DNA of 32,666 nt, taken from the NCBI GenBank assembly GCA_037441385.1, contig JBBISH010000076.1, forward strand, positions 1 through 32,666, read 5' to 3'. The position numbers were made by a program, and so were the translations under genes. Positions 448 through 26,957 of the stretch are shown in pieces. How positions within the stretch are numbered: position 1 is the first letter of the stretch; every line of letters begins with the position of its first letter. This DNA is from Myxococcales bacterium. GTDB lineage: Bacteria > Myxococcota_A > UBA9042. The notes beneath the pieces were generated by a model that was not told the DNA's origin, did no database searches, and worked only from the letters and a program-made list of their open reading frames with translations.

Positions 448-2477
448 AAGCACGCAGTTCCTGGTTCCTTTTGGTGCTGGCCGCGGCGTGGCTGCTGGCC
501 GGCTGCATGCCTGACCGCAAGGGCGAAGCGCAGATCTTGGCCGAAGCCGCGGCCAAGGCCGACTCGACCGCGCTGGCCGACGGGATCGCCGGCGACGACA
601 GCGCGAGCGACGGCTCCGCTGGCGAGGGGATCGCCGACGACGGGATTGTCGACGCCGCCGACGCGGTGACGGCCGATACCGAGCTGGCCGACACCACCGG
701 GGCCGACGATGGCGACAGTCTGACCGAGGTGGCGGACACTGCCGGCGCCGAGGTTGCCGACACCAGCGGCGACGCGACGGCCGTGGTCGATGCCGCGGAC
801 GCATCCGACACGGCCGAACCCGTTGACAGCGCCGACACTTCCCTGCCGGGCGACGTCGCGGACGTGGCGCCCCCAGCCGACGCGACCGGGTCAGGGGATG
901 CCGCCGACGGATCCGGGCCGCCAGATACGGCCGACGCAACCAGCGACGCGGCAGATGCAAATGACGGCCAAGGGGGCGGTGCCGACAGCGACGCCAGCGC
1001 CCCGTGCACCAAGGACGCCGACTGCAGCAGCGGCAACGCGTGCCAGGTTGCCCACTGCGTTTCGGGGTCGTGCGTCCTGACCGCGGTGAACTGCGACGAC
1101 GGCAACGTGTGCACGGTAGACAGTTGCGCGACCACGGTGGGCTGCGGCCACGTCTCGGTGGCCGATGGCTCGGCGTGCACCACGGGATCGCCATGCACGC
1201 TGGGCGACAGCTGCCAAACGGGCGTATGCACCTCGCTGCCCGCCATCTGGGACAAGGCCGTAGGAACCAAGTCCGAAGATCACTTGGTCGCCGTGGATGC
1301 TACAGCCGCGGGCGTGGTGGCGGTGGGCTCCTCCAACCACAACGGCCTGTGGGAAGCGTGGCTGGTTTGGGTCGACAACACTGGCAAAGTGGTGCTCAAC
1401 AAAACCTTTGGCGGTTCGGGCGAGGCGCACTCGGGCACCGGGATCGCCACACTCGCCGATGGCAGCTTCGCCCTGGCGGTCGGCGTCAACGCCAACAACA
1501 AGCTCAAGGCCCGACTTCTGCACGTCAGCGTCAACGGCAACCTGCTCGCCGAGGCGACCTTCATGGACGTGGACCCGCAAAGGGTGGCCGCCGTGCCCGG
1601 CGGCGGCGCGGTCCTGGTCGGTCGGACTGTGGACGGCGCGTCCGGCAGAGGCTGGGCCGCGCGAGTCGACGCTGGGTGGGGCAAAGTCTGGGAAAAGGAG
1701 TTCGGCGACAGCAGCGCCTCGTCCTTTGCCGACCTTGCCATTGCCAACAGCATGATTTGGATGGTCGGCACCACGCCCGCGTCGCTGACCTCGCTGGACC
1801 AAGCGTGGGTCGTGCGCACCGACCTGAACGGCGCGGTGCAGTTGGAAAAAACCCTGTCATCGCTGCTTCCGCGCTCGCTGACCGGTGTCTCGGCGGCGGC
1901 GCTCGGCGGCGAAATCATCGCGGTCGGCCGCAGCACCTCGGTCGGCGACGCGGGGCTGGTGCTGCGCGTCGATGCGAGCGGCGCCGTCAAGTCGGACAAA
2001 GAGTTCAGCAGCGGCAGCAGCTACTTCCAGGGCGTGGCGGCAACCTTCCCGGTGTCGGGCGTCGACGGCGGTGCTTTGGCCGTGGGCGTCGCCAAGCCGG
2101 GCAGCGACAACCAACTATGGCTCACGCGCACCCAGCAGACCGGCTACCAGGCTTGGCAGAAGACCATGGGCGGCTCTGGCGCGGAACAAGCGCGCGACGT
2201 GTTGCTGCAGGCGCACACCCTGTGGATCGTCGGCGACACCAGCAGCATAGGTGCCGGCGGCAGCGACGGCTGGATCCTGCGGCTCGACGTGTTCGGCAAC
2301 GCTAGCTGCGCAACCTCGGGCCCGTGCGTCACCATTGGCCAAGCGGCCTGCGACGACGGCATCCCCTGCACCGCCGACATTTGCACCGCAGCCACCTACG
2401 CCGACAAATGCGCCAAAGGCGGGTGCGACGCCTACGTGGGCTGCGCGTCCTCGGCGATCTCGATGTGTACTCAGTAG
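444..2477 (+). CDS. Lipoprotein with Asp/Ala-rich linker, Cys-rich repeats and a probable beta-propeller domain
   Basis: ATG at 444 is coupled to the upstream stop. Signal peptide II MKARSSWFLLVLAAAWLLAG|C, an acidic low-complexity linker, CDDGNVCTVDSC and CDDGIPCTADIC repeats flanking repeated 'W.K.(F/M)GG' and 'vAvG..W..r.D..G' blade-like units. Confidence 0.8.
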   Translation: MKARSSWFLLVLAAAWLLAGCMPDRKGEAQILAEAAAKADSTALADGIAGDDSASDGSAGEGIADDGIVDAADAVTADTELADTTGADDGDSLTEVADTAGAEVADTSGDATAVVDAADASDTAEPVDSADTSLPGDVADVAPPADATGSGDAADGSGPPDTADATSDAADANDGQGGGADSDASAPCTKDADCSSGNACQVAHCVSGSCVLTAVNCDDGNVCTVDSCATTVGCGHVSVADGSACTTGSPCTLGDSCQTGVCTSLPAIWDKAVGTKSEDHLVAVDATAAGVVAVGSSNHNGLWEAWLVWVDNTGKVVLNKTFGGSGEAHSGTGIATLADGSFALAVGVNANNKLKARLLHVSVNGNLLAEATFMDVDPQRVAAVPGGGAVLVGRTVDGASGRGWAARVDAGWGKVWEKEFGDSSASSFADLAIANSMIWMVGTTPASLTSLDQAWVVRTDLNGAVQLEKTLSSLLPRSLTGVSAAALGGEIIAVGRSTSVGDAGLVLRVDASGAVKSDKEFSSGSSYFQGVAATFPVSGVDGGALAVGVAKPGSDNQLWLTRTQQTGYQAWQKTMGGSGAEQARDVLLQAHTLWIVGDTSSIGAGGSDGWILRLDVFGNASCATSGPCVTIGQAACDDGIPCTADICTAATYADKCAKGGCDAYVGCASSAISMCTQ

Positions 2478-2531
2478 TTCCACATGCCGTAGCGGCACCC
2501 GGCATCCATGAAAATCAGCATGTTGAACTAG
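2475..2531. repeat. Short palindromic element (MITE-like) starting on the TAG stop codon
   Basis: Left end TAGTTCCACATGC versus reverse complement of the right end TAGTTCAACATGC (12/13). TA/TAG occurs at both ends. Confidence 0.55.
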
Positions 2532-2564
2532 GCGGCCGTGGCCGGGGCCGCACACAGGGGTCGC

Positions 2565-2594
2565 AGGGGGCGGCGCGCCCCCTTGGCATTTTCT
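2565..2594 (+). terminator. Possible intrinsic terminator hairpin
   Basis: AGGGGGCG-gcg-CGCCCCCT 8-bp stem followed by tggcattttct, between convergent genes. The U-tract is weak. Confidence 0.3.
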
Positions 2595-2625
2595 ACCTGG
2601 GGCGGGGTTTTCGGCGCTCATACCA

Positions 2626-2764
2626 GTTCCGTCCGAATCGGATCGAAAACTCGGGCAATTCTTCGGGCTCGAACCGGGGTCCCCGCCTGATTCTCGCCGG
2701 TTGCAGACCGGGTCAGAGAAGCCGTACAGGCGTGAATCAGACGGGGTTCGTATCAGTCGGGCGA
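2626..2764. repeat. Structured direct repeat, copy 1 (candidate ncRNA or DNA site)
   Basis: 2648-2764 aligns without gaps to 3731-3847 at 94/117 identity by manual alignment. Internal inverted repeat 2681-2698/2729-2746 (16/18). Confidence 0.85.
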
Positions 2765-3559
2765 ACCGTGACTTGCCAAGCCGTGGCCAAGCTGCCGCGT
2801 GACTTCGCGCGGCCGCCAGCCAAATTGGTGCAGAAGCTGGCCAAAAACTTGCTGGGCCCGCCGCTGCGATGCCTCGATCCACGCAGCCGTTTCCTGATGA
2901 ATCGTATGGGCTGCCTCGCCACCGCGCACAGAGGCGAGTTCGCGGGCGTGCAGGCGCAACCAGCGCTCGATGAGAAGTTGGTCCACCTCCAAGTGAAACT
3001 GCAACCCATAGGCGCGTTCGCCAAAGCGAAAGGCCTGATTGGGGCACAGGTCGCTCTGGGCCAGCCGCTCACTGCCCGCAGGGATGGCAAAGGTGTCGCC
3101 GTGCCACTGGAATATCGGCGTCTGGGGGCCCAGCAAGCGCAAGGCCGGGTCGACGAGGCCGCTCGTCGTCAACCGAACGTCGTACCAACCCAGTTCTTTG
3201 GTAGGGTTGCGGCCCACCGTGGCGCCCAACGCGTGCGCGAGTAGCTGTCCGCCCAGGCAGATCCCCAGCACTGGCATACCACGGCGCAGCGCCGCCCCCA
3301 GAAGGTCCAACTCGGTCTTGAGGTGCGGGTGGCGATCTTGCTCGTCCACGTTCATCGGGCCGCCCAAGACGATGAGAGCGTCGTAGCCGGCCAAGTCGGG
3401 ACGCGCATCGGGGTGGCGCGCAAAATTGACGTAGCGAATCCGGATCTTCCGGGCCTTCAGCAGCGCATCCAACGCCCCCAGCGGCTCGTACGGCACGTGC
3501 TGAACTACCAGCACCCGCCGCAACTCTGCGTCGCCCAAAGGTTGCGCCTCCGCGCCCAT
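2753..3559 (-). CDS. Class I (type 1) glutamine amidotransferase-like protein
   Basis: LIVLGGPM oxyanion loop, nucleophile elbow GICLGGQLL, FQWHGDTF, catalytic His/Glu in QFHLE. Confidence 0.93.
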   Translation of the reverse strand: MGAEAQPLGDAELRRVLVVQHVPYEPLGALDALLKARKIRIRYVNFARHPDARPDLAGYDALIVLGGPMNVDEQDRHPHLKTELDLLGAALRRGMPVLGICLGGQLLAHALGATVGRNPTKELGWYDVRLTTSGLVDPALRLLGPQTPIFQWHGDTFAIPAGSERLAQSDLCPNQAFRFGERAYGLQFHLEVDQLLIERWLRLHARELASVRGGEAAHTIHQETAAWIEASQRRAQQVFGQLLHQFGWRPREVTRQLGHGLASHGSPD

Positions 3560-3600
3560 ACCGTACCCGCCCGCCCATTGGTCGTCCGATCGCCGGGGCG

Positions 3601-3629
3601 ACTGTGCCGGTGCCAGCTCGCGCCGTCAA
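3601..3629 (-). promoter_or_regulatory. Putative sigma70-type promoter of the amidotransferase gene
   Basis: Minus strand TTGACG-N17-CACAGT, ending ~40 nt upstream of ATG 3559. Confidence 0.4.
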
Positions 3630-3707
3630 GCCCGGTGCGCAGGCGATTGTGGTGGCGTGCCAGGGACATCGCGGTCGCCCCACGCCGCCCACGAGCCCGT
3701 GATCCCG

Positions 3708-3847
3708 GTTCCGTGCGAGTCGAAAACAAGAACTCAGGCAATTCGTCGGGCCCGAACTGGGGTCCCCGTTTGATTCTCGCCAGTTGTAGATCGGGTCACC
3801 GATAGCGTGCCGGCGTGAATCAGGTAGGGTGCGCATGAGTCGGCCGA
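3708..3847. repeat. Structured direct repeat, copy 2
   Basis: Homologous to 2626-2764 at an offset of 1083 bp. Same TGATTCTCGCC-N30-GGCGTGAATCA inverted core (3771-3781/3812-3822). Confidence 0.85.
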
Positions 3848-3848
3848 C

Positions 3849-3877
3849 TTGACAGGCCGGGCCCTGCTGGCAAGGAT
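3849..3877 (+). promoter_or_regulatory. Putative sigma70-type promoter of the small wHTH gene
   Basis: Perfect TTGACA, 17-nt spacer, AAGGAT. ATG at 3917 is preceded by AGGA. Confidence 0.45.
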
Positions 3878-3916
3878 TCCAGCCGCGGACCCTGGCGCCG
3901 CCGTAGGAACCCAATC

Positions 3917-4099
3917 ATGGAAAACGAAGAGAAGGTCATCGCGTTCTTCAAGACGGCCACCAAGCCGGTCAGCGCCGGTCAGATCGCCGACGCCACCGCC
4001 ATTGACCGCAAGGAAGTGGACAAGGTCATGGCTAAGCTGAAGAAATCCGGGCAGATCGAGTCGCCCAAGGTGTGCTATTGGCAGTGGAAACAAGCCTAG
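3917..4099 (+). CDS. Small winged-helix (HTH) protein, 60 aa
   Basis: KPVSAGQIADATAIDRKEVDKVMAKLKKSGQIESPKVCYW is a typical compact wHTH pattern. RBS AGGA; good codon usage. Confidence 0.85.
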   Translation: MENEEKVIAFFKTATKPVSAGQIADATAIDRKEVDKVMAKLKKSGQIESPKVCYWQWKQA

Positions 4100-4115
4100 C
4101 CGCTGCCGAATCTAT

Positions 4116-4144
4116 TTGACGCACTGCCCGGCACAGGCGACCAT
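4116..4144 (+). promoter_or_regulatory. Putative sigma70-type promoter of the pilin gene
   Basis: TTGACG-N17-GACCAT, ~55 nt upstream of ATG 4199. Confidence 0.35.
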
Positions 4145-4198
4145 GGAGGTCAGAGCCGGCGGCTACGGTCCCATCCGTCCTGCTCTGCGAGGCCGCGA

Positions 4199-4759
4199 AT
4201 GAACGCCAAGACCATCCGAGATCGCAGCGCATTGGGCTTTACCCTGATCGAACTGATGATCGTGGTGACCATCATCGGCATCTTGGCCACAGTGGCCGGT
4301 CAGAGCTACAAGCGCTTTGCTCGCCGCGCCCGCGTTCAAGAAGCTGTGTCGCTGCTGGGCGATATCCGCATCAAAGAAGAGAGCTATTACCAGACCTACC
4401 ACCAGTACGTGTCCAGCGGCAACAACGACACCGACTGGTGGCCCAAGGACATGGACTGGCAAAAGCTGAATACGACCTGGGGCATCGACTGCAGCAAAGC
4501 CGGCGACGTGGCCGCCAATCCCGGTTGGTGCGCCCTGGGCGCCGGGTACCGCAGCACCGAGGCCGCCAACTTCCAGTTCGTCGTCGTGGCGCGCAACCCA
4601 GCTGCACCGGCCGCGCCGCCCGTCCAGTACGTCAAGGACGCCACCGTGGACTGGTGGTATGCCCGCGCCCGCGCCGACTTCGACGTCGACGGCGAGTACT
4701 CGGACATCTACCTGTCCAGCGAGATGCGCGAGCCGTTCTTGGACAACGAATTGGAATAG
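4199..4759 (+). CDS. Type IV pilin-like protein (prepilin N-methylation motif)
   Basis: Basic leader, then G|FTLIELMIVVTIIGILA with Glu5, AR..EA helix, a Cys pair, and a C-terminal 'A.ADFDVDG' motif typical of deltaproteobacterial pilins. Confidence 0.92.
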   Translation: MNAKTIRDRSALGFTLIELMIVVTIIGILATVAGQSYKRFARRARVQEAVSLLGDIRIKEESYYQTYHQYVSSGNNDTDWWPKDMDWQKLNTTWGIDCSKAGDVAANPGWCALGAGYRSTEAANFQFVVVARNPAAPAAPPVQYVKDATVDWWYARARADFDVDGEYSDIYLSSEMREPFLDNELE

Positions 4760-4786: not shown

Positions 4787-6385
4787 TCATCGACCGCTGC
4801 ACGCTTGAGAAACGGCCGGCACATCGGCCAGTTCACGGGCCAGCAAGCGCATGAAATCGCCAGCCAACTGCGGCTCGCCGGCCAACGTGGCGGATTGTTC
4901 GAGCCAAACCAGCTCTTGCCGCAGCGTCTTGGGGTTGGGCCCGGCCTGTTGCGCCAGCGCACAGACCCGCTCTTGCCGGGCCACCAGCGCCGCCGCAGCG
5001 TCCAGGCCATCCAGGTGCTGCAAGCACGCGCGGGCACAGCGATCGCGCAGTGGGCCCACATGCACTGCCAGGGCCAGCGCCGCCACGGCGTCCGGCTCGC
5101 TGGCCAGCGCTTCGGCCAACCACTCGGGGTCGTCGTCCACGATGGCCCGCTCGATCAAGCCGCGCCGCAGCGTGGGCCACTGCCGCGTGTTGGCCGCCCG
5201 CCGCGCCCAGTGATACCACGCAAGCACGGGTCGCTTCTCGAACGCCCACAGCGCAATTTCGACCGCGGTCGTCGGCTCGGCCGCCGTGAGCGCCGCCTCC
5301 AAACCCAGGGCCCACAGCGGGCCGCGCGGGTCGTACCATCCCACCAGGCGCTGCAGGTCGCGAGTGCGGCCAGTCTGACCCAATTGCATAGCCAGCGCGC
5401 CCAGATGCGTGCGCCCAGGCCCCCACGCCAGCGCCAGCTCCAACGCTTGCTCGACCTCGCCCGCGGCCAAGCGCAGCCCGCCCACCTGATCCCACAGCAG
5501 GTCGCGGCCACCCAATTGGTCCGTCTCGCGCCAGTGGTTGCTGCCGGCTTGCGCCGACCACGCCAGCAGTTTGGTGGCAAGGCGCTCGGCCAACTCATTG
5601 CGTCGGGTTGCCTGACGGGCCAACGCCACCGCCACGGCCGGGGCAAGCTGCGGCGGCCCGTCGATCGCCACGTCGAAAAGCTGATCAAGCACGGCGTCTT
5701 GCATGTTGATCTCGGCGTGGTCCAGCACCGCGACCAGTTGCTGCAGCGCCGGCTCCGCCCCGCTGGGCAGGGGCACGAACACGACTTTGCGCACGCTCAG
5801 GGCCGACATGAGCCGCGTCGCCCACACCAGGGCCGGCTGCGGTTGTTCGCGCGCCGCCTCGGCAATCCGCTCGATCAAGCTGCGCAGGTCGGCCAATTCC
5901 TGCTCGCCCGGCCGCAGCGATTGCCGCCAAGTCAGCGCCACCAGGTCCACGCTGGCCTCGATCGGCAGCCGCTCGTGGGTCCGCAAGATGCGCAGGCCGG
6001 GATCGCGCGCCTCCGAGCGCACTTGCATGCGCTGCTTCAGCGCCCCCATCACCAGGTCCTGGGTCCGTGCCGACTCCGCCACGGCCCTGGCCTTGCGCTG
6101 CAGCTCGACGAGCGCCGCCACGGCGTGCGGACAGCGACGAACTCCACAGGAACACTGGCTTTGCACGGTGCCATCGGCGAGCAACAGCTCGACACTCTCG
6201 ACCACCGGCGGCGCATGCACCGTGGCGCTCCAGCCGTCGCCCTGCGGCACCAGCCGGCCCAAGTGCCCTGCCCGCTGCAGTTGCATCCCCGCAACGCTGT
6301 GCTTGGCCCCGGCCCAGGCCAAGGTCGACAGTCCGCTCAGCGCGGGCGCCCAAGCCAGCAGGCGGTTGCGCTCGTCGCTACCCAT
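4787..6385 (-). CDS. SWIM zinc-finger domain protein
   Basis: CSCGVRRCPHAVAAL (CxC-x4-CxH) near the N-terminus, followed by a long helical region. ATG abuts the upstream TAG. Confidence 0.8.
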   Translation of the reverse strand: MGSDERNRLLAWAPALSGLSTLAWAGAKHSVAGMQLQRAGHLGRLVPQGDGWSATVHAPPVVESVELLLADGTVQSQCSCGVRRCPHAVAALVELQRKARAVAESARTQDLVMGALKQRMQVRSEARDPGLRILRTHERLPIEASVDLVALTWRQSLRPGEQELADLRSLIERIAEAAREQPQPALVWATRLMSALSVRKVVFVPLPSGAEPALQQLVAVLDHAEINMQDAVLDQLFDVAIDGPPQLAPAVAVALARQATRRNELAERLATKLLAWSAQAGSNHWRETDQLGGRDLLWDQVGGLRLAAGEVEQALELALAWGPGRTHLGALAMQLGQTGRTRDLQRLVGWYDPRGPLWALGLEAALTAAEPTTAVEIALWAFEKRPVLAWYHWARRAANTRQWPTLRRGLIERAIVDDDPEWLAEALASEPDAVAALALAVHVGPLRDRCARACLQHLDGLDAAAALVARQERVCALAQQAGPNPKTLRQELVWLEQSATLAGEPQLAGDFMRLLARELADVPAVSQACSGR

Positions 6386-10856: not shown

Positions 10857-10886
10857 CGGCATTCTTGTGAATTGGAGCGAAGTTGC

Positions 10887-12203
10887 ATGTTTGCACGTTC
10901 GACCGGCGCGACCCATCCAGGCTTGGTGCGCACTGAAAATGCCGACGGCTTTGTGGCCGACGATCATTGCGGCCTGTACGTGGTGGCAGACGGGGCTCGG
11001 GGTGCCGCCGGTGAGTTCGCCGCGCGCCTGTTTCTGCAGGGAGCCGAGCAGCAAGCCGCACACCTGGCACAAGTCGCCGCCGCGGCCCTGCGCGACAGCG
11101 ATCCCGGCCGTGGTCGCCGGGCCGTGCTCGACGCGCTGACCCAGTTGTTTCAGAACATCAACGCCGAGATCTACAACTGGGCCCACGACCGGGCCGAACT
11201 GCGCGGGGCCTCGACCACGGCCACGTTGGCGCTGTTGGATGGTCGGGGCGCGTACATCGCCCATGTTGGTGACTCGCGGCTGTATTTGCAGCACGGCGTG
11301 GAGCTGCGGCAGCTGACTGCCGACCACACCATGGCCGAAGAGCTGATTCGCCTGGGCCAGCTAAAGCGGGACGAGGCCGACGGTTTCCGCTACCGGGGTG
11401 TGGTGAGCCGCATCCTGGGCGAGCGCGCGTTGTGCCGCCCAGACCTGGCGTACATCGACGTCACGCCGGGTGCCCACTTGCTGCTGTGCAGCGATGGCCT
11501 GACCGACTACGTCCCTGATCGCGATCTGGTGTCGCTGCTGAGCCGGCCGGCCCAGGACCTGAGCCAGCCGCTGGTGGACTTGGCGCTGCGCAATGGCGGC
11601 GGCGACAACGTGACGGCCGTGGTGGTGACGATCGCGCCGACCAGCGAGCCGCGCACCGTGGTCTCGACCGTGCCAGGCACGTTCCAAGCCACGCAGAACT
11701 TGGACCTGTTGGCAGGCCTCAGCTTCTGTCAGCACCTGTCGCGCGACGAGCTGATGAAGGTGCTGCGCTACGTGCACGAGGTGCAACTGCTCCCGGGCGC
11801 AGTGGTTTTCCGCGAAGGCGAAGAGGGGCAGGATCTGTTCCTGGTGGTCAGCGGGTCGCTGCAGGTCGAAGTGGGGCGTCAGCCAGTCAACCAGTTGGGC
11901 CCCGGCGCACATTTTGGCGAGATCGCTCTAGTTTCCGGCCAGCCGCGCTCGGCCACGGTGGTGGCCAAAGAACCGACCCGCCTGCTGCGTTTGTGCCGCG
12001 AGGACTTCTATGACCTGAGCCAGCGCGACCAGGGCGTGGCGGTCAAAATCCTTTGGTCGTTCGCCCAGACCTTGGCGGGCCGGGTGACGGGGCTATCCAA
12101 AGAAGTCGCCGAGTTCAAGAAGCACGGCATCGCGCTCTCCGCGGACCACACCATGGACGTCAAGATGATCCACGTGCCGCGGAGCCCAGCTGAAAAGAAA
12201 TAG
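10887..12203 (+). CDS. PP2C (PPM) Ser/Thr phosphatase fused to a C-terminal cyclic-nucleotide-binding domain
   Basis: GLVRTENAD, VVADG, AHVGDSRLY, LLCSDGL and GGGDNVT, then VFREGEEG and FGEIALVSGQPRSATV phosphate-binding cassette. Confidence 0.93.
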   Translation: MFARSTGATHPGLVRTENADGFVADDHCGLYVVADGARGAAGEFAARLFLQGAEQQAAHLAQVAAAALRDSDPGRGRRAVLDALTQLFQNINAEIYNWAHDRAELRGASTTATLALLDGRGAYIAHVGDSRLYLQHGVELRQLTADHTMAEELIRLGQLKRDEADGFRYRGVVSRILGERALCRPDLAYIDVTPGAHLLLCSDGLTDYVPDRDLVSLLSRPAQDLSQPLVDLALRNGGGDNVTAVVVTIAPTSEPRTVVSTVPGTFQATQNLDLLAGLSFCQHLSRDELMKVLRYVHEVQLLPGAVVFREGEEGQDLFLVVSGSLQVEVGRQPVNQLGPGAHFGEIALVSGQPRSATVVAKEPTRLLRLCREDFYDLSQRDQGVAVKILWSFAQTLAGRVTGLSKEVAEFKKHGIALSADHTMDVKMIHVPRSPAEKK

Positions 12204-12209
12204 CGGGAG

Positions 12210-12294
12210 CTAGGAGCCTGTCGGCAAAATGGGCGACACGACATGTCCATTTAGTTATACATTATGATCTTATTGGGTGCCGCCAGTCTCCTAG
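12210..12294. mobile_element. MITE-like element with CTAG flanks
   Basis: CTAG-GAGCCTGTCGGCA ... TGCCGCCAGTCTC-CTAG: 11/13 terminal inverted repeat, CTAG on both sides, AT-rich interior. Confidence 0.55.
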
Positions 12295-12309
12295 CCTTTT
12301 TCGTTTGTC

Positions 12310-12359
12310 CAACTGGCCGAAAATCGCCCGAAGTGAATTCGTGCGATTTCAGCCAGTTG
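12310..12359. repeat. Imperfect palindrome/hairpin
   Basis: CAACTGGCCGAAAATCGCCCGAA versus reverse complement of the right arm CAACTGGCTG-AAATCGCACGAA. Confidence 0.6.
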
Positions 12360-12379
12360 CCGCCGCGCAAGACGCGGCG

Positions 12380-12416
12380 CTAGGATTGTGCCGGGATTAT
12401 CCCGACACGCTCCTGG
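12380..12416. repeat. Short palindrome related to the 12210 element ends
   Basis: CTAGGATTGTGCCGGGA-tta-TCCCGACACGCTCCTGG (13/17). The reverse complement of the right arm, CCAGGAGCGTGTCGGGA, matches CTAGGAGCCTGTCGGCA at 14/17. Confidence 0.5.
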
Positions 12417-12509
12417 AGAGCGGATCAATTAAGACTTTCTCCGTACATCCGAACCTTCGAACTCGGCGCGGCGAGTCGCTGAAGGCGCTCGTTTGCGCCC
12501 CACTTGGGG

Positions 12510-12571
12510 CTAGAGACGCGGCCGGAAGATGTAGTTACTGAACAAATGAGCAGTAATTGGTCGCGTCTCTA
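12510..12571. repeat. Palindromic element anchored on the rel TAG stop
   Basis: TAGAGACGCGGCC versus reverse complement of the right end TAGAGACGCGACC (12/13), plus inner TTACTG/CAGTAA stem. The right arm contains the rel stop codon. Confidence 0.6.
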
Positions 12572-14833
12572 CCCGCGCAACCGCTCGACCCGCGACACGC
12601 CCTTGATCCGCCCCAGCGACGAGATGACGCCGTTGAGTTGGCTGACGTTGTTCACCATGACCTCGAAGTCGTTGATCGCACGGCGTCCGTCGATGACCCG
12701 GCAGTGCGCGGCCTGGATGTCGACCCCGGACTCGGTAAAGCGCTGGCTCATCGCTGCCAAAAGACCAGGCGTGTTCTCGGTGTAGACGCGCACGGTCACC
12801 ACTGCGCCGCTGCCGGTGTCCGTATTCCAGCCGCAGTCCAAGCGCCGCATCGCGTCGGCTTCTAGCACCTTGGGGCAGCCGCGCTGGTGCACGGTGATGC
12901 CGCGGCCGCGGGTGACGACGCCGATGACCGGATCGCCCGGAACCGGCGAACAGCACTTGCCAAAACGCACCAGCACGTCGTCCAGGCCGTCCACAACGAT
13001 GGTGGCGCCGCTGGTCTTTTGCTTGCGCGGCCGTTTGATCGCCTCGGCAATCGCATCGGGCTCGGCCGGCTTGGCGGTGGGGAACAGCGTCTGGGCCGCC
13101 TTGTCGGCATCGGCCTTGCCAAAGCCGATGGCCACCAGCAGGTCTTCCCAGCTCGACACGCCGGCCGACGCCAGCACTTCGGCCAGCTTTTCGTGCTCTT
13201 GCGCGCGGGCCATCGAACACTTGAGGCGGCGGAGCGCCTTTTCCAGCAGGTCACTGCCGATCTCGTGGGCACGGGTGCGCTGCTCGGCGTGGACAAAGGC
13301 GCGGATGCGGTTCTTGGCCTTGGCGGTCGCGACAAATTCCAACCAGTCTTGGCTGGGTTGCGCGTCTTGCCGGGTCATGATGTCCACGACGTTGCCGTTG
13401 CGCAGCTGGTGGCGCAGCGGGACGATCACGCCGTCGACCTTGGCGCCGACGCAGCGCTCGCCCACCTTGCCGTGGATGGCAAACGCAAAATCCACCGGCG
13501 TAGCGCCGCGCGGCAGCACCTTGACGTCGCCCTTGGGCGTAAAGGTGTAGACCTCGTCGTTGAAGAGGTCGACCTTCATCGTCTCCAAGAACTCGTCCGA
13601 GTCCTTGACGCCCGTGTGCCACTCCAAGAGCTGCTTCAGCCAGGCAAAGCGCTCTTCGTCGCGCAGCCGCAGCGACTCGCCGCGCTCTTTGTACTTCCAG
13701 TGCGCCGCCACACCTTCCTCGGCGAAGCGGTGCATATCGTGGGTGCGAATCTGCACTTCGATGCGCTCGGCGCGCGGGCCGATCACCGCCGTGTGCAGCG
13801 ACTGGTAGCGGTTCGACTTGGGCAGTGCGATGTAATCCTTGAAGCGCCCCGGGATCGGCTTCCAATGGCCGTGCACCGCGCCCAGCGCCTGGTAGCACTC
13901 CTTGACGTCATTGACCAAGATGCGGAAGCCCTGGGCGTCGTAGATCTGCTCGTACGGCACCTTGCCCTTCTCCATCTTGTGCCAGATGCCGTACAGGTGC
14001 TTGGGGCGGCCGTACACGCTGGCGTGGCCAAGGCCCTCGGTTTCCATCAGTTCGTGGATCTCGGCCACCACTTCGTTGACGTAGGCCTGCCGCTCGGCCT
14101 GGCGCTGACCCACGGTAAAGGCAAGTTGCCGATACTCTTCGGGATACAGGTGGCGGAAGCACAAGTCTTCCAGCTGCGCCTTCATCCAGCCGATGCCCAG
14201 GCGATTGGCCAGCGGGCTATAGATCTCGGTGGTTTCTTGGGCGATGCGTTTCTGACTCTCGGGCTTCATGTGCTCGAGCGTCGTCATATTGTGCAGTCGA
14301 TCCGCCAGCTTGGTCAGCAACACGCGGATGTCGCGCGACATGGCCACGAGCATCTTGCGGAAGTTTTCGGCCTGTTTGTGCTCCTGGCTGGAGAACTTGA
14401 TTTTGTCGAGCTTGGTCACCCCATCGACAATCAGCGCGATTTCAGGGGTAAAGCGGCGCGAGATCTCCTCGATCGTGACCACCGTGTCTTCGGCGACGTC
14501 GTGGAGCAGGCCAGCGCAGACCGATGCCACGTCCAGCCGCAGGCGCGTGAGCAAAAATGCTACAGCGACCGGGTGGGCAAAGTACGGCTCGCCGCTCTTG
14601 CGAAACTGACCGCCGTGGCTGTGGGCCGCAAAGGCGTAGGCGCGGCGCAACATGGCGAAATCGCTGTCGGGTAGGTAACTCCGCAGCGTCGCAACGAGCT
14701 CTTCGACCGTGGGTACGCCGTCGATGACAATGGGCTCGTACAGGGGGTCTTCGGCGGTCGCACTGGCAGCCAGACCAGGACCGGCACCGGCACCGTCAGC
14801 CGGCGCGACCGCTGATTCGCTAAGATCCTTCAT
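12569..14833 (-). CDS. rel: Bifunctional (p)ppGpp synthetase/hydrolase (long RSH)
   Basis: RKSGEPYFAHP, HD motif LLHDVAEDT, KLADRLHNM, RFKDYI, YQSLHT, EVQIRT, TGS (FTPKG...DFAFAIH), CCSPVPGD zinc finger and C-terminal ACT. Confidence 0.97.
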   Translation of the reverse strand: MKDLSESAVAPADGAGAGPGLAASATAEDPLYEPIVIDGVPTVEELVATLRSYLPDSDFAMLRRAYAFAAHSHGGQFRKSGEPYFAHPVAVAFLLTRLRLDVASVCAGLLHDVAEDTVVTIEEISRRFTPEIALIVDGVTKLDKIKFSSQEHKQAENFRKMLVAMSRDIRVLLTKLADRLHNMTTLEHMKPESQKRIAQETTEIYSPLANRLGIGWMKAQLEDLCFRHLYPEEYRQLAFTVGQRQAERQAYVNEVVAEIHELMETEGLGHASVYGRPKHLYGIWHKMEKGKVPYEQIYDAQGFRILVNDVKECYQALGAVHGHWKPIPGRFKDYIALPKSNRYQSLHTAVIGPRAERIEVQIRTHDMHRFAEEGVAAHWKYKERGESLRLRDEERFAWLKQLLEWHTGVKDSDEFLETMKVDLFNDEVYTFTPKGDVKVLPRGATPVDFAFAIHGKVGERCVGAKVDGVIVPLRHQLRNGNVVDIMTRQDAQPSQDWLEFVATAKAKNRIRAFVHAEQRTRAHEIGSDLLEKALRRLKCSMARAQEHEKLAEVLASAGVSSWEDLLVAIGFGKADADKAAQTLFPTAKPAEPDAIAEAIKRPRKQKTSGATIVVDGLDDVLVRFGKCCSPVPGDPVIGVVTRGRGITVHQRGCPKVLEADAMRRLDCGWNTDTGSGAVVTVRVYTENTPGLLAAMSQRFTESGVDIQAAHCRVIDGRRAINDFEVMVNNVSQLNGVISSLGRIKGVSRVERLRG

Positions 14834-17027: not shown

Positions 17028-17066
17028 CGAGTGCGGCGGGCTCTGGGGACGCAGCGAGGGATAGCG

Positions 17067-18449
17067 ATGGGCAACAGCGGGCAATGCCAGGGCAATTACA
17101 GGCGGGGCAACCGCACAGCCTGGGTCCGGCTGGAACTGCTGGAACGGCTGTCACGGCTGTCACGGCCAGCACTGCTGTCACGGCCAGCACTGGTGGCACT
17201 GCTGGCACTGCTGGCACTGCTGGCACTGATCAGCCTGTCCGCTTGCACCGACGACTTTGAACCGGCCTATCGGATCAGCAAGTTGCGGGTCTTGGGCGTC
17301 AAAGCCACGCCGCCCGAGGTTCACCTGGACAGCGCCACCGACCTGACCATGCTGGTGGCAAGTCCGCGTCCCGATGCACAACTGTGCTACGCGTGGGCCT
17401 TTTGCCCCTTTGCCTGGGCCAAGGACGGCAACTACAAGTGCTTGGACCCCGACCTGCAAGTGGACCTGGGCACCGGCGCCACGGCCACGGTCACGATCGC
17501 CACGCTGATGCAGTCACTGGCCAACGCCCCGGCCGTGTTCAAGAAAATGGGTATGGACATGCCCAGCGGTAGCTCGGCGGCCCCGGATCTGGGATGCATC
17601 CCGGGTGGCAAAGTAGTGGCAGGTGCGGGCGTGGGCGGCTTCTCTACAGGTTCGGTGCCGGATTTCTACGTGCTGTTCCAGGTCGGCGAGATCGGCGCGT
17701 ACGGCGGCACTTGCCCGACCAAGGCCTCTGCAATGCTGTCCAAGATCTGCGGCGACCGCAGCAACTGCTTGGCGGGCTTCAAGCGCCTGGGCTTGGCCCC
17801 CATGACCGGAAGTTGCCCGGCGTTTGACGCAAACAAGGAGCCGGTTTGTGCAAAGACTCCGGCCAGTTGCGCCTATGTCCCCGAGTGCGGCTGCGACGGC
17901 AAGACCTACAGCAACGCCTGCGAGCGCGCGGCCGCCAAGGTCAGCAAGAGCTACGATGGCGAGTGCCGTTCGGTCAACCAGAATCCCGAGTTGCAGGGCA
18001 TCGGGCTCCGCGTGCCGGCGGTGGACGTAGCGGCCGACGTGTCGCGCGGCGTGGCCTGGCCAGAGGACGTGACCCCCGTGCTGGCACCGGGCAGTACGGT
18101 CCAGTTCTGGCCCCAGTGGGATCCCAGTCAAATTCAGGTGATCGGCCCCTCTAGCGACCCGACCGTGAAGGAGCCCGTCAAAGAAACGTTGTTGTTCTCG
18201 TGGTTCAGCGAAGCCGGCGACTTCAGCGAGGTCAAGACCTGGCACGGCAAGCCACAAGTCGACTACACCGCCCCCAGCTTGGCCGCGACCGAGACCAGCA
18301 AAATCGTGCCGATCTGGCTGGTGGTGCGTGACGAGCGCAACGGCACGGGCTGGCTGCGCAGGCAGGTGCGCATCGAGAAAGGCGCCACCTTGAAGCAGAA
18401 TCCGGTGTGCATCGCCGCGCCGACGGCGGCAGGCTGCAAGGCGCCGTAG
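17067..18449 (+). CDS. Lipoprotein with an inserted Kazal-like Cys domain
   Basis: LISLSA|C lipobox, C.DDFEP...LRVLGVKATPPE N-terminus, PECGCDGKTYSNAC...YDGEC Kazal pattern, C-terminal WLVVRDERNGTGW. Confidence 0.8.
   Translation: MGNSGQCQGNYRRGNRTAWVRLELLERLSRLSRPALLSRPALVALLALLALLALISLSACTDDFEPAYRISKLRVLGVKATPPEVHLDSATDLTMLVASPRPDAQLCYAWAFCPFAWAKDGNYKCLDPDLQVDLGTGATATVTIATLMQSLANAPAVFKKMGMDMPSGSSAAPDLGCIPGGKVVAGAGVGGFSTGSVPDFYVLFQVGEIGAYGGTCPTKASAMLSKICGDRSNCLAGFKRLGLAPMTGSCPAFDANKEPVCAKTPASCAYVPECGCDGKTYSNACERAAAKVSKSYDGECRSVNQNPELQGIGLRVPAVDVAADVSRGVAWPEDVTPVLAPGSTVQFWPQWDPSQIQVIGPSSDPTVKEPVKETLLFSWFSEAGDFSEVKTWHGKPQVDYTAPSLAATETSKIVPIWLVVRDERNGTGWLRRQVRIEKGATLKQNPVCIAAPTAAGCKAP
17130..17228 (+). 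repeat. 9-bp in-frame tandem repeat (11 units) in the signal peptide
   Basis: ctggaactg/ctggaacgg/ctgtcacgg x2/ccagcactg/ctgtcacgg/ccagcactg/gtggcactg/ctggcactg x3. Confidence 0.9.
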
Positions 18450-23122: not shown

Positions 23123-24168
<1,046 letters not shown>

Positions 24169-24178
<10 letters not shown>

Positions 24179-24194
24179 GTGGGTGGTGTAGGTG
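24169..24194 (+). repeat. Perfect 13-bp tandem duplication spanning the stop codon
   Basis: GGTGGTGTAGGTG x2. Confidence 0.85.
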
Positions 24195-24202
24195 GGGTGC
24201 AC

Positions 24203-25423
24203 ATGAGTGCCGCGGCGGCCAATCCGCTCGACGACATCCTGAACGACGCCAAACTGCTGGTGCTTTCGGGCTCTGGTGGCGTGGGCAAGACCACCTCGTC
24301 GGCGGCTCTGGCGGTGCTGGCGGCGCAGCGCGGCCGGCGGGTGCTCGTGTTGACCATCGATCCGGCGCGGCGCCTACTGCAAGCACTTGGTTTACAAGGT
24401 GATTCACCAGAGAGCAAGCCGCCAGCCAACGTCGCCCACCCGGTGTTGCCCAAGCTGGCCGACCAGCTTCCGGGTGGCGTGGCGCCGGGGGGCTGTTTGG
24501 ATGCGATGATGCTCGACGCGAGTACGGGCGCCATCGCAATGGTCGAGCGCCTGCTGCCGAACCCGGAGCTGCGCGATCAGGTCCTGAACAACCGCATTTA
24601 CCGGGCGTTTTTGCCCACGCTGCAGGCCAGCCCGGACTACATGGCGCTCGAGCTCATTTTCGAGTTGGCCCAGGGCGGAAAGTACGATCTGCTCGTGCTC
24701 GATACACCGCCGATGCACAACGCGCTGGATTTCTTGCGGGCGGGCAACACCTTGGCCAGCTTCATCAACGAGCGCGTGCTCAAATGGTTTAGCAAGGTGC
24801 CGCTGCCAGGCGCCAAACCCAAGGGGGGCCTGCTGGGCTGGTTCGGTGCGAGCAGTTCGATGGCGATGGGCGTGTTGGGCAAGCTGTTCGGTTCGGACGC
24901 CCTGCCCGATATCGCCCAGTTTTTCGTGGCCTTCCAAGACGTACTGCCGCGCTTGAAAGAGCGGGCCCTGGCCACCGATGCCATGTTGCGCGAACCCACG
25001 ACACAATTCCTGGTGGTAACGGCGCCCGGCGAGACTTCGCTGCGCGAGGCGCGCCACCTGTACGAACAGCTAAGCAGCCACGGTATCGCGGTAGCCGGGT
25101 TTGTGGTGAACCGGGTGCTCCAGGTCCCGGCTGCACTGCATGGCGGCGGCAACCCTGCGGATCTGCGACAACGGTTGAAGCATCGCGGGCTGGTCGGCGA
25201 GCAGCTCGAACGCGTGGTCGAACAGCTGAGCGAGGCGGCGCGACGCTTGGAGCACCTGCGCACCTCGGACACAGGTCAATTCGACGCCCTGCGCACTCTG
25301 GCCGGCAAGCACGGCTTTTGCAGCGCCGTCCCGCAACGCGAAGGCGACATCCATCAATTGAAGCAGTTGCGCGATCTGGCTCAGGCGATCCTCGACGGCG
25401 TCCGAACGGGCATGGTACCCTAA
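24203..25423 (+). CDS. ArsA/Get3-family ATPase, subunit 2
   Basis: GSGGVGKTT, VLTIDPARRL, YDLLVLDTPP..NALDFL, VVNRV. Confidence 0.92.
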   Translation: MSAAAANPLDDILNDAKLLVLSGSGGVGKTTSSAALAVLAAQRGRRVLVLTIDPARRLLQALGLQGDSPESKPPANVAHPVLPKLADQLPGGVAPGGCLDAMMLDASTGAIAMVERLLPNPELRDQVLNNRIYRAFLPTLQASPDYMALELIFELAQGGKYDLLVLDTPPMHNALDFLRAGNTLASFINERVLKWFSKVPLPGAKPKGGLLGWFGASSSMAMGVLGKLFGSDALPDIAQFFVAFQDVLPRLKERALATDAMLREPTTQFLVVTAPGETSLREARHLYEQLSSHGIAVAGFVVNRVLQVPAALHGGGNPADLRQRLKHRGLVGEQLERVVEQLSEAARRLEHLRTSDTGQFDALRTLAGKHGFCSAVPQREGDIHQLKQLRDLAQAILDGVRTGMVP

Positions 25424-25505
25424 TCAGGTGACTGCGCCGTGGCCCGCGCGCACCGTGCGGCCCGGCCTTGGAGCGGTCCCTCCCAAGGACCGCAGCGTGC
25501 ACGCC

Positions 25506-26957
25506 ATGGCCAATTCTCTTGGTTCTCCTTACACTTCCGCAGCAAGCGCCGCCAGCGACCCCAAGATGGCTGCGGCTCCAACCGCTTTCGTGCCGCCGCC
25601 GGGCCGCCACGTCAAACCGCCGGCTCCTCCGTCGTCGCGGTGGCATACCCAGCTGACCGAGGGCCGGTTTTGGTCACAGATCCCGGCATGGCGCGACGTG
25701 GACGAGGCGACGTTCCTCGATTTTCGGTGGCAAGGCCGCAATTCGATTACCCGGCCCGAAGCGCTGCTGGCAGCCCTGCAGGGTCTGGCGTCGCCTGAAT
25801 TCATTGCCGACGCCGCGGCCGGGTTTGCCCATTCGCCGATGTCGGTGCGGGTCACACCCTACCTACTAAGTCTGGTCGATTGGTCCAACCCATACCGTGA
25901 CCCCGTACGGCGCCAGTTCATCCCGCTGGCTTCGCAGCTCAAACCCGACCATCCCGAACTGGTACTGGACTCGCTGCACGAGCAGGAAGACGCGCCCGTC
26001 GCGGGCCTGACCCACCGCTATCCCGACAAGGCGTTGTTCCTGGCGCTGGACACGTGTCCCGTTTATTGCCGTTTCTGCACACGCAGTTACGCCGTGGGCC
26101 AGGACACCGACATGGTGGACAAGGTCGCCATCAACGCCGATTCCGGCCGTTGGGAACAGGTGTTCGAGTACATCGCCACGCGCCCCGAGCTGGAAGACAT
26201 CGTGCTGTCCGGCGGCGACGTCTACAACCTGCCGGCCAAGCATATTCGGCAGTTGGGCGAGCGATTGCTGTCCCTGCCCAACATCCGCCGCATTCGCTAC
26301 GCGACCAAGGGGCCGGCGGTGATGCCGCAAAAGCTGCTGACCGACCACGAGTGGGTGCAGGCGCTGGTCGACGTGGTCAAGCTGGGTCGCTCGCTGCGCA
26401 AGGACGTGGTGCTGCACACGCACTTCAATCATCCCGCTGAAATTACCTGGATTACCCGCGAGGCGCTGGGCCGTCTAGCCGAAGAAGGCGTATTCATCCG
26501 CAACCAGAGCGTGCTGCAGCGCGGCGTGAACGACGACGTGGACACCATGCGTCTGCTGTGCAAGCGCCTGGGTTGGGTGGGCGTGCACCCGTACTACGTG
26601 TATATCCACGATTTGGTGAAAGGTGTTGAGGACTTGCGCACCACACTGGCCGTCGGCATCGATATCGAGAAGGCGGTCCGCGGCGCCACGGCTGGTTTCA
26701 ACTCGCCTGTGTTCGTGGTCGATACCCTGGGCGGCGGCGGCAAGCGCGACGCCCACAGCTACGACTATTACGATCGCGAGACCGGTATCGCGGTGTTCTC
26801 CAGCCCCAACGTGGATCCCAAGCGGCAGTTCTTCTTCTTTGACCCGATTCGCGAGTTGTCGCCCGAGGTTCAGCGCCGTTGGGCCGATCCGGTCGAGCGC
26901 GAGAAGATGAAGGCAGACGCATCGGCCAAGGCCCTTGAACTGAAAGGGAAACGTTAG
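25506..26957 (+). CDS. KamA-family radical SAM protein (lysine 2,3-aminomutase-like)
   Basis: DSLHEQED.PV.GLTHRYPDK, CPVYCRFCTR cluster motif, LSGGD, HTHFNHP, NQSVLQRGVNDD, PLP-lysine motif GGGGK. Confidence 0.92.
   Translation: MANSLGSPYTSAASAASDPKMAAAPTAFVPPPGRHVKPPAPPSSRWHTQLTEGRFWSQIPAWRDVDEATFLDFRWQGRNSITRPEALLAALQGLASPEFIADAAAGFAHSPMSVRVTPYLLSLVDWSNPYRDPVRRQFIPLASQLKPDHPELVLDSLHEQEDAPVAGLTHRYPDKALFLALDTCPVYCRFCTRSYAVGQDTDMVDKVAINADSGRWEQVFEYIATRPELEDIVLSGGDVYNLPAKHIRQLGERLLSLPNIRRIRYATKGPAVMPQKLLTDHEWVQALVDVVKLGRSLRKDVVLHTHFNHPAEITWITREALGRLAEEGVFIRNQSVLQRGVNDDVDTMRLLCKRLGWVGVHPYYVYIHDLVKGVEDLRTTLAVGIDIEKAVRGATAGFNSPVFVVDTLGGGGKRDAHSYDYYDRETGIAVFSSPNVDPKRQFFFFDPIRELSPEVQRRWADPVEREKMKADASAKALELKGKR

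Follow-up and report, generated by a model that had tools for sequence, protein, structure and literature searches.

A stretch of 32,666 nt from a Myxococcales bacterium (contig JBBISH010000076.1, positions 1 to 32,666), called the window below, carries two copies of a non-coding repeat of about 125-145 nt, one on each side of a gene for a class I glutamine amidotransferase (GATase). The repeat forms a stable hairpin, bears no mark of a known family and is dispersed, being found again at other places beside unrelated genes. On sequence grounds, it appears to be a small, hitherto undescribed, hairpin-carrying intergenic family. We favour, with about even weight, the interpretation that this repeat is dispersed between genes at low copy number and is most likely a non-autonomous mobile element, past or present, of a type lacking inverted ends; the amidotransferase gene would happen to have one old copy on each side. 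Its mobility, its mode of spread and any effect it may have on transcripts are inferred from these observations.

Two diverged copies of a non-coding repeat

A reading made earlier from the letters alone (the sequence-only reading) had reported direct repeats 1083 bp apart with a core identical at 94 of 117 positions, and both figures were recovered: positions 2648-2764 and 3731-3847 align without a gap over 117 nt, with 94 identities (80%) and starts 1083 nt apart. The differences in this core are 14 transitions and 9 transversions, and the longest identical stretch shared by the two copies is 12 nt. With one 1-nt indel, the repeat reaches 2620-2764 and 3702-3847 (114/146 identical, 78%, E 4.2e-29 by blastn against the window). 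The similarity ends at the borders of the element and does not include the flanks. Nothing else like the repeat was detected by blastn within the window, the next match being unrelated, with an E value of at least 0.06.

Copy 1 (2620-2764, + strand) lies in the convergent spacer between a gene for a 727-aa protein and the amidotransferase gene (2753-3559, − strand; PF00117, E 3.6e-18), which is a neighbour and not a part of the element. The last 12 nt of this copy overlap the 3′ end of the amidotransferase gene, stop codon included, as the sequence-only reading had stated. Copy 2 (3702-3847, + strand) lies in a divergent spacer, between the amidotransferase start (3559, − strand) and the start of a small helix-turn-helix (HTH) gene (3917, + strand). 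A covariance model scores copy 1 at 148.1 bits (model core 2626-2752) and copy 2 at 139.3 bits (model core 3708-3835). Both copies consist of a weak 5′ hairpin, a linker with GGGGTCCCCG and one long imperfect hairpin.

Several reading frames are open across the copies, as happens by chance in 66% G+C DNA. A small coding protein was nevertheless ruled out: the 23 core mismatches are spread 5/9/9 over the codon phases, without codon periodicity, the two copies differ by a 1-nt indel, and G+C at third codon positions (GC3), which is 0.8-0.9 in the neighbouring genes, is a flat 0.55-0.70 in all phases across both copies. We conclude that the repeat is non-coding.

Further copies beside unrelated genes

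Other copies were sought in 185,579 species genomes (596 Gb), with a pattern made of the two exact arms of the long hairpin (22 bases) and 28-32 nt between them. It matched at one place, in JACRCU010000509.1 (stretch L001), from a groundwater metagenome-assembled genome (MAG) labelled Deltaproteobacteria. This third copy (L001 positions 2939-3065, + strand) is 77.4% identical to copy 1 over 115 nt (E 5.8e-20) and 79.6% identical to copy 2 over 93 nt. Its score with the covariance model, 141.5 bits, falls between those of the two window copies. When the model was run with filters off on the window and on L001, no further copy was found, the best match remaining after the three copies and their reverse-strand echoes having 10.6 bits (E 0.26).

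The third copy fills a 148-nt spacer between two + strand genes. The upstream one encodes a peptidase M13 and stops at 2933, the element following 5 nt after; the downstream one is mfd (domains CarD_TRCF_RID, UvrB_inter, DEAD and Helicase_C), whose start at 3082 is 17 nt past the element. No amidotransferase gene is present within 3 kb. Synteny between copy 1 and this copy could be ruled out, the protein upstream in L001 being unrelated to the 727-aa protein of the window. A relative with one copy and no amidotransferase, which the sequence-only reading had proposed to look for, was therefore found in JACRCU010000509.1. All three DNA copies occupy spacers between genes, and their pairwise identities, 77-80%, are alike within and between genomes.

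As a second route, a profile of one translated + frame, made from the three copies, was run against 1.84 billion representative proteins; this detects only copies miscalled as genes and read in that frame. Three proteins were matched, P0121 (85 aa, E 4e-16), P0122 (164 aa, E 3e-13) and P0123 (317 aa, E 7e-4), all singletons, encoded on three different NCBI contigs of 9.8, 83 and 43 kb. They are probably spurious open reading frames (ORFs) that read through further copies of the repeat. In P0122, the repeat copy follows a truncated HSDR_N fragment. In P0123, the frame passes through a copy with a frame shift, and the translation of window positions 12200-12427 shares 85.5% identity with residues 2-77, so that this protein comes from a close relative, in which a copy is present at a place where none is found in the window. 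Read as protein, the arms of P0122 and P0123 have changed, to L-T-L and I-V-G instead of L-I-L-A. A translated profile of the − frame (18-88 aa range) gave no match, and a search with the P0121 region (46-149 aa range) matched nothing beyond P0121 itself.

Two side observations concern these proteins. P0122 starts with the N-terminal domain of a type I restriction HsdR protein (PF04313; profile positions 113-163 of 198 match residues 27-82), which suggests a truncated or disrupted hsdR-like gene adjoining the element. The window region akin to P0123 falls at a 365-nt convergent spacer (12204-12568) between a PP2C/cNMP-binding gene (10872-12203, +) and relA/spoT (12569-14833, −); this spacer is visibly richer in A+T than its surroundings and has no Rfam match, and the similarity to the start of P0123, seen in one translated frame, covers its first 228 nt.

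Altogether, three DNA copies lie in three spacers and three ORF-read copies on three other contigs, which makes at least 6 copies on at least 5 contigs. These counts are lower bounds, because the genome scan needs 22 exact bases and the protein route a miscalled ORF. By such matches, the family seems to occur in several related uncultured bacteria labelled Deltaproteobacteria, beside unrelated genes.

The presence of the repeat beside unrelated genes means that it is not a device built around the amidotransferase gene. The sequence-only reading had tied the pair to that gene, as a cassette, as paired sites or as a glutamine-related RNA, a link that does not survive a third copy placed between peptidase M13 and mfd. 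The pair might instead have arisen by duplication of one spacer, purely local and decaying neutrally, without a wider family behind it. Its two members are the only ones in 32.7 kb and they are close together, as a duplication would leave them, but their similarity stops at the element ends instead of running into the flanks, and there are copies in other genomes and contexts. The L001 copy already refutes this explanation, to which we leave next to no probability.

A one-gene cassette bounded by recombination sites, of the integron attC or another site-specific type, deserves separate mention. The arrangement is like that of integron cassettes: a single gene, here in a 1.08-kb unit, has on each side a direct repeat that contains imperfect inverted repeats, and the repeat at the 3′ end of that gene overlaps its stop codon. 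The cores of an attC site, R″ (RYYYAAC) and R′ (GTTRRRY), stand at the base of its stem. Unlike attC sites, none of the three copies has them: GTTRRRY and RYYYAAC gave 0 matches on both strands. Nor was an integrase seen among the 26 window ORFs scanned, two repeats in 32.7 kb do not make an array, the copies are only 78% alike, and the third one is solitary. The gene itself is an ordinary, widely conserved chromosomal one (5858 relatives among 8000 candidates scored), and its C-terminal tail is retained in the nearest homologue (87% identical), which ends in ...HGSPG versus ...HGSPD here. The end that overlaps copy 1 being present in that homologue too, it is no fresh junction. We therefore hold recombination sites of this kind to be highly improbable, and the recombination sites proposed by the sequence-only reading are, for the integron type, not supported. 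Homologous recombination is no better a route: an identity of 12 nt is too short for efficient RecA recombination, and with 12 nt as the longest identical run, excision of the 1.08-kb unit is unlikely and no circle is expected.

One stable hairpin

Both window copies have the long-stem arms TGATTCTCGCC (2688-2698 and 3771-3781) and GGCGTGAATCA (2729-2739 and 3812-3822). The 11-nt arms are identical in the two copies, and so are the T/T mismatch and the 30-nt spacing between the arms, in agreement with the inverted core described from the letters alone. The arms belong to P1, as we call a long imperfect hairpin that measures about 19-20 bp, contains a T/T mismatch and has a variable top. In copy 1, P1 spans 2681-2746 (+), with a variable apical region of 30 nt and a minimum free energy (MFE) of −31.5 kcal/mol (z −3.04, 0 of 200 shuffles folding as well); in copy 2, it spans 3764-3829 (+), with an MFE of −31.0 kcal/mol (z −3.86, 1 of 200). 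In the third copy, the z score is −5.19 and again 0 of 200 shuffles fold as well.

P1 is stable in all three DNA copies, and it is the only part that folds better than shuffles. The weak 5′ hairpin, P0, lies at 2629-2666 (+) in copy 1, where CCG..CGAAT pairs with ATTCT..CGG around an A-rich loop, and a hairpin of the same type lies at 3711-3749 (+) in copy 2; alone, P0 was no better than shuffles in the three copies (z −0.3, +0.6 and −1.8). Whole elements were not better than shuffles either, on either strand (z −0.9 to −1.9). The repeats had been called structured, and this applies to the long hairpin only.

A second stem, overlapping P1, had been put forward by the sequence-only reading on account of a compensatory change, with a switch or a pseudoknot as its consequence. 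The two changes are real: with 2675 C>T and 2699 G>A, AACCGG/CCGGTT becomes AACTGG/CCAGTT, so that 6 of 6 positions are paired in both window copies, which differ there by one double change. In the third copy, however, this stem is weakened by one G.U pair and one C.A mismatch, and its observed covariation score was reached by 329 of 500 shuffles. The stem shares two bases with P1 and encloses the 5′ arm of P1, which is itself worth about −31 kcal/mol. No support is thus left for a switch or pseudoknot, whose only basis is one double change not upheld by the third copy.

Identical arms could also be read as double-stranded DNA sites, for a regulator or a nucleoid protein recognising TGATTC..GAATCA. 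The position of copy 2 would suit such a role, its spacer being shared by divergent genes, that of a small HTH protein among them. But the conserved unit measures 125-145 nt and is not a short site, and a single operator seldom has arms separated by 30 nt. Control of initiation would also make little sense for the L001 copy, between the co-directional peptidase and mfd genes, or for copy 1, at a convergent end, and the arms are altered in P0122 and P0123. We consider protein-binding sites quite unlikely.

The hairpins were next compared between strands and between sequences. For both helices in the three-sequence alignment, 78 of 81 cells (96.3%) are paired on the + strand, versus 72 of 81 (88.9%) when mirrored on the − strand, a comparison biased towards the + strand, on which the structure had been derived. 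The difference is due to G.U pairs, by which seven varying pairs are retained on the + strand. Covariation in the three sequences, which are too few to show any, did not exceed that of shuffles (345-392 of 500 reach the observed values), and 14 of the 19 P1 pairs never vary. In the comparison of copy 1 with copy 2, which is unbiased, stems are not better conserved than the rest of the element (34/42 identical in the stem, 66/85 elsewhere, Fisher p 0.82). The higher stem identity in comparisons with L001 comes from the search pattern, which required the arms.

These data bear on the idea of a functional, strand-specific structured RNA of the + strand, either a cis-acting untranslated piece of mRNA involved in processing or stability, or a small RNA from longer transcripts, selected in a few places per genome. 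Several observations are in its favour. Copies across species and contexts are still 77-80% identical, the family seems low-copy, and pairing is better on the + strand. The L001 element lies between co-directional + strand genes, and would therefore be transcribed in the + sense if these genes are read through; in the window, a + strand gene likewise lies downstream of copy 2, and another lies upstream of copy 1. The long helix would moreover be a plausible RNase III substrate. Against these stand the folding of whole elements, the covariation and the stem conservation, none of which distinguishes the element from shuffles or its stems from its loops, and the lack of any Rfam family, ribozymes included. 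Signals of transcription are also wanting. The sequence-only reading had placed copy 2 between two divergent sigma70-like promoters; the genes are indeed divergent, but a consensus scan of 2400-4250 found 0 promoters. By eye, TTGAC-type −35 hexamers can be seen on each side of copy 2, with poor −10 hexamers. In the same scanned region, no T-run terminator frames the element. Copy 1, finally, comes after a terminator-like hairpin (2564-2585, +) that lies behind the gene for the 727-aa protein, and it faces the amidotransferase gene in antisense. Weighing both sides, we regard a functional RNA as the chief alternative, possible though on the doubtful side.

Proposed spread of the element

In the interpretation that we favour, a dispersed and most likely mobile repeat, the element would settle in spacers between genes, leaving neither inverted ends nor target duplications. 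The flanking of the amidotransferase gene would then reflect two insertions into neighbouring spacers, rather than a cassette or a gene-specific control device. In an mRNA that includes the element, the long helix would form, and it could act there as a processing site of the RNase III type or as a 3′-end barrier. Pairwise identities that are alike in all comparisons, together with a stem no more conserved than the rest, would fit old copies drifting apart. According to a review of small bacterial repeats (PMC3184786), fusion of such repeats to the ends of ORFs is frequent, and inverted ends are missing from certain classes.

Several points weigh against this interpretation. Terminal inverted repeats are absent from the three copies, the end-to-end scores of 10-11 being reached by 203, 216 and 270 of 300 shuffles, and so are target duplications, the direct repeats flanking the copies being at most 4 nt long, as expected by chance (the exact ends of the element are uncertain by a few bases). 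No transposase is nearby, among the 26 window ORFs and 3 L001 ORFs scanned, where no integrase and no reverse transcriptase were seen either. The copy number looks low, with 1 exact-arm match in 596 Gb, the sole one in its MAG, and 3 protein matches. Two copies in the same orientation 1.1 kb apart, in a low-copy family, are not expected from random placement and are unexplained. The better pairing of the + strand is a weak hint of a single-strand function. Finally, P0123 diverges from the window, with about 150 nt of unrelated sequence between the shared part and the element; because the sequences part ~150 nt before the element, the two are not a clean filled and empty pair.

Comparison with known families

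The sequence-only reading could not match the repeat to a known RNA, and Rfam 15 gave the same answer, with 0 matches at gathering scores over the whole window, its riboswitches (the glutamine riboswitch included), ribozymes, sRNAs, HEARO and group II intron domains being among the families covered. The best match inside a copy was mir-36 (17.4 bits versus a cut-off of 48, E 1.6), and the L001 copy had only chance-level microRNA matches. No tRNA and no tmRNA were found in the window. The plasmid and phage collections contained no match to either copy, and blastn against 5,426 E. coli genomes (28 Gb) gave none at E 0.01. In the literature on small repeats in Deltaproteobacteria, Myxococcus and Myxococcota, no such element was found described, which is weak evidence, as sequence is not searchable there. 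One Rfam match of the window lies within the amidotransferase coding region, in antisense (3160-3385, +): npcTB_6715, a Mycobacterium small RNA, with 19.5 bits versus a cut-off of 72 (E 0.025), which we take as chance.

By the features tested, the element would belong to none of the families compared, and would work most like the small transposase-less repeats of the ERIC or RU type. As described in PMC3184786 and PMC2759123, and as is in part generally known, these repeats (~100-170 bp) are of similar size, non-coding and confined to spacers of either kind, sometimes overlapping gene ends, and they have a long imperfect hairpin and copies about 80% alike. Unlike them, our element has no E. 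coli sequence match, is apparently of low copy number, and has two separate hairpins instead of one full-length palindrome. It resembles MITEs (transposable elements of miniature size with inverted repeats) in being small, non-coding, dispersed, intergenic and without a transposase of its own, but their defining features, terminal inverted repeats and target-site duplications, are both absent, so that it is not a classical MITE. Like REP and BIME sequences, it brings intergenic hairpins able to sit in transcripts; REPs are 20-40 nt long and usually very abundant, as stated in PMC2817692, whereas the present unit is 125-145 nt long and rare.

A diversity-generating retroelement (DGR), with its TR/VR pair, was considered and rejected. 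The 23 mismatches are not adenine-specific (C8 G6 A5 T4 in copy 1, T7 G6 C6 A4 in copy 2), and no reverse transcriptase family is present among the window ORFs scanned.

Non-autonomous elements derived from IS200/IS605 offer another comparison. According to PMC3201880 and PMC6006769, such palindrome-associated elements are moved as single strands by a TnpA, which recognises subterminal imperfect hairpins. Our element resembles them in the lack of inverted ends and of target duplication, a hairpin near each end, a main stem with a kept mismatch and a slightly better pairing on one strand. It differs from them in that its two hairpins are dissimilar, P0 being weak, and in that no common target sequence can be seen at the left flanks of the three copies. 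Neither TnpA nor TnpB was seen in 38.7 kb of the two genomes. The link to IS200/IS605 is one of resemblance only. A bolder proposal would make the repeat a new strand-specific functional unit, that is, either a hitherto undescribed cis-acting RNA whose 20-bp helix directs the processing or protection of adjacent messages, in a deltaproteobacterial or myxobacterial lineage of which little is known, or a non-autonomous HUH-type (single-strand) transposon with novel hairpins. We find this rather unlikely; if it were true, the direct pair around the amidotransferase gene could represent such elements capturing or insulating a gene.

What the family would be worth depends on which of these descriptions applies. 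Should it be no more than a small dispersed repeat, it would have little importance beyond annotation, as a marker of spacers in an uncultured lineage; it would still account for spurious ORF calls such as P0121-P0123 and for the odd C-terminal tail of the amidotransferase, and it provides a covariance model for masking. Should low copy number and conservation with covariation be established, the family would amount to a new structured RNA in a group that has received little study. The discovery of a single-strand transposase to match would make it a new type of end for HUH transposition.

Gene neighbourhood

The window is otherwise ordinary chromosome, with relA/spoT, tolQ/tolR/tonB-like genes, prfA, a gene for a DHH/DHHA1 (recJ-like) protein, meaB, a cyclase, PP2C and a pilin-like gene. 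Closest to the repeats, the gene 70 nt downstream of copy 2 (3917-4099, +) encodes a stand-alone HTH protein of 60 aa (HTH_11, E 1e-5; HTH_11/Rrf2-like), and it is followed by a gene for a 186-aa protein (4199-4759, +) with a prepilin N-terminal methylation motif. On the other side, the 727-aa protein (294-2477, +) belongs to no solid Pfam family; its C-terminus is Cys-rich, and the protein has a sub-threshold match to the Cys-rich Dicty_CTDC repeat (21.2 bits versus a cut-off of 27). The long ORF 4787-6385 (−) has a coding-like GC3, in the 0.79-0.86 range, and no Pfam family at E 1e-3. The same GC3 values (0.79-0.86) were found for the long ORFs 17031-18449 (+), 25428-26957 (+) and 29064-31763 (+), with no Pfam family at E 1e-4. 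At 23123-25423 (+), two tandem genes encode ArsA/ParA-like P-loop ATPases of 351 and 414 aa; next come ORFs that have no Pfam family, and meaB.

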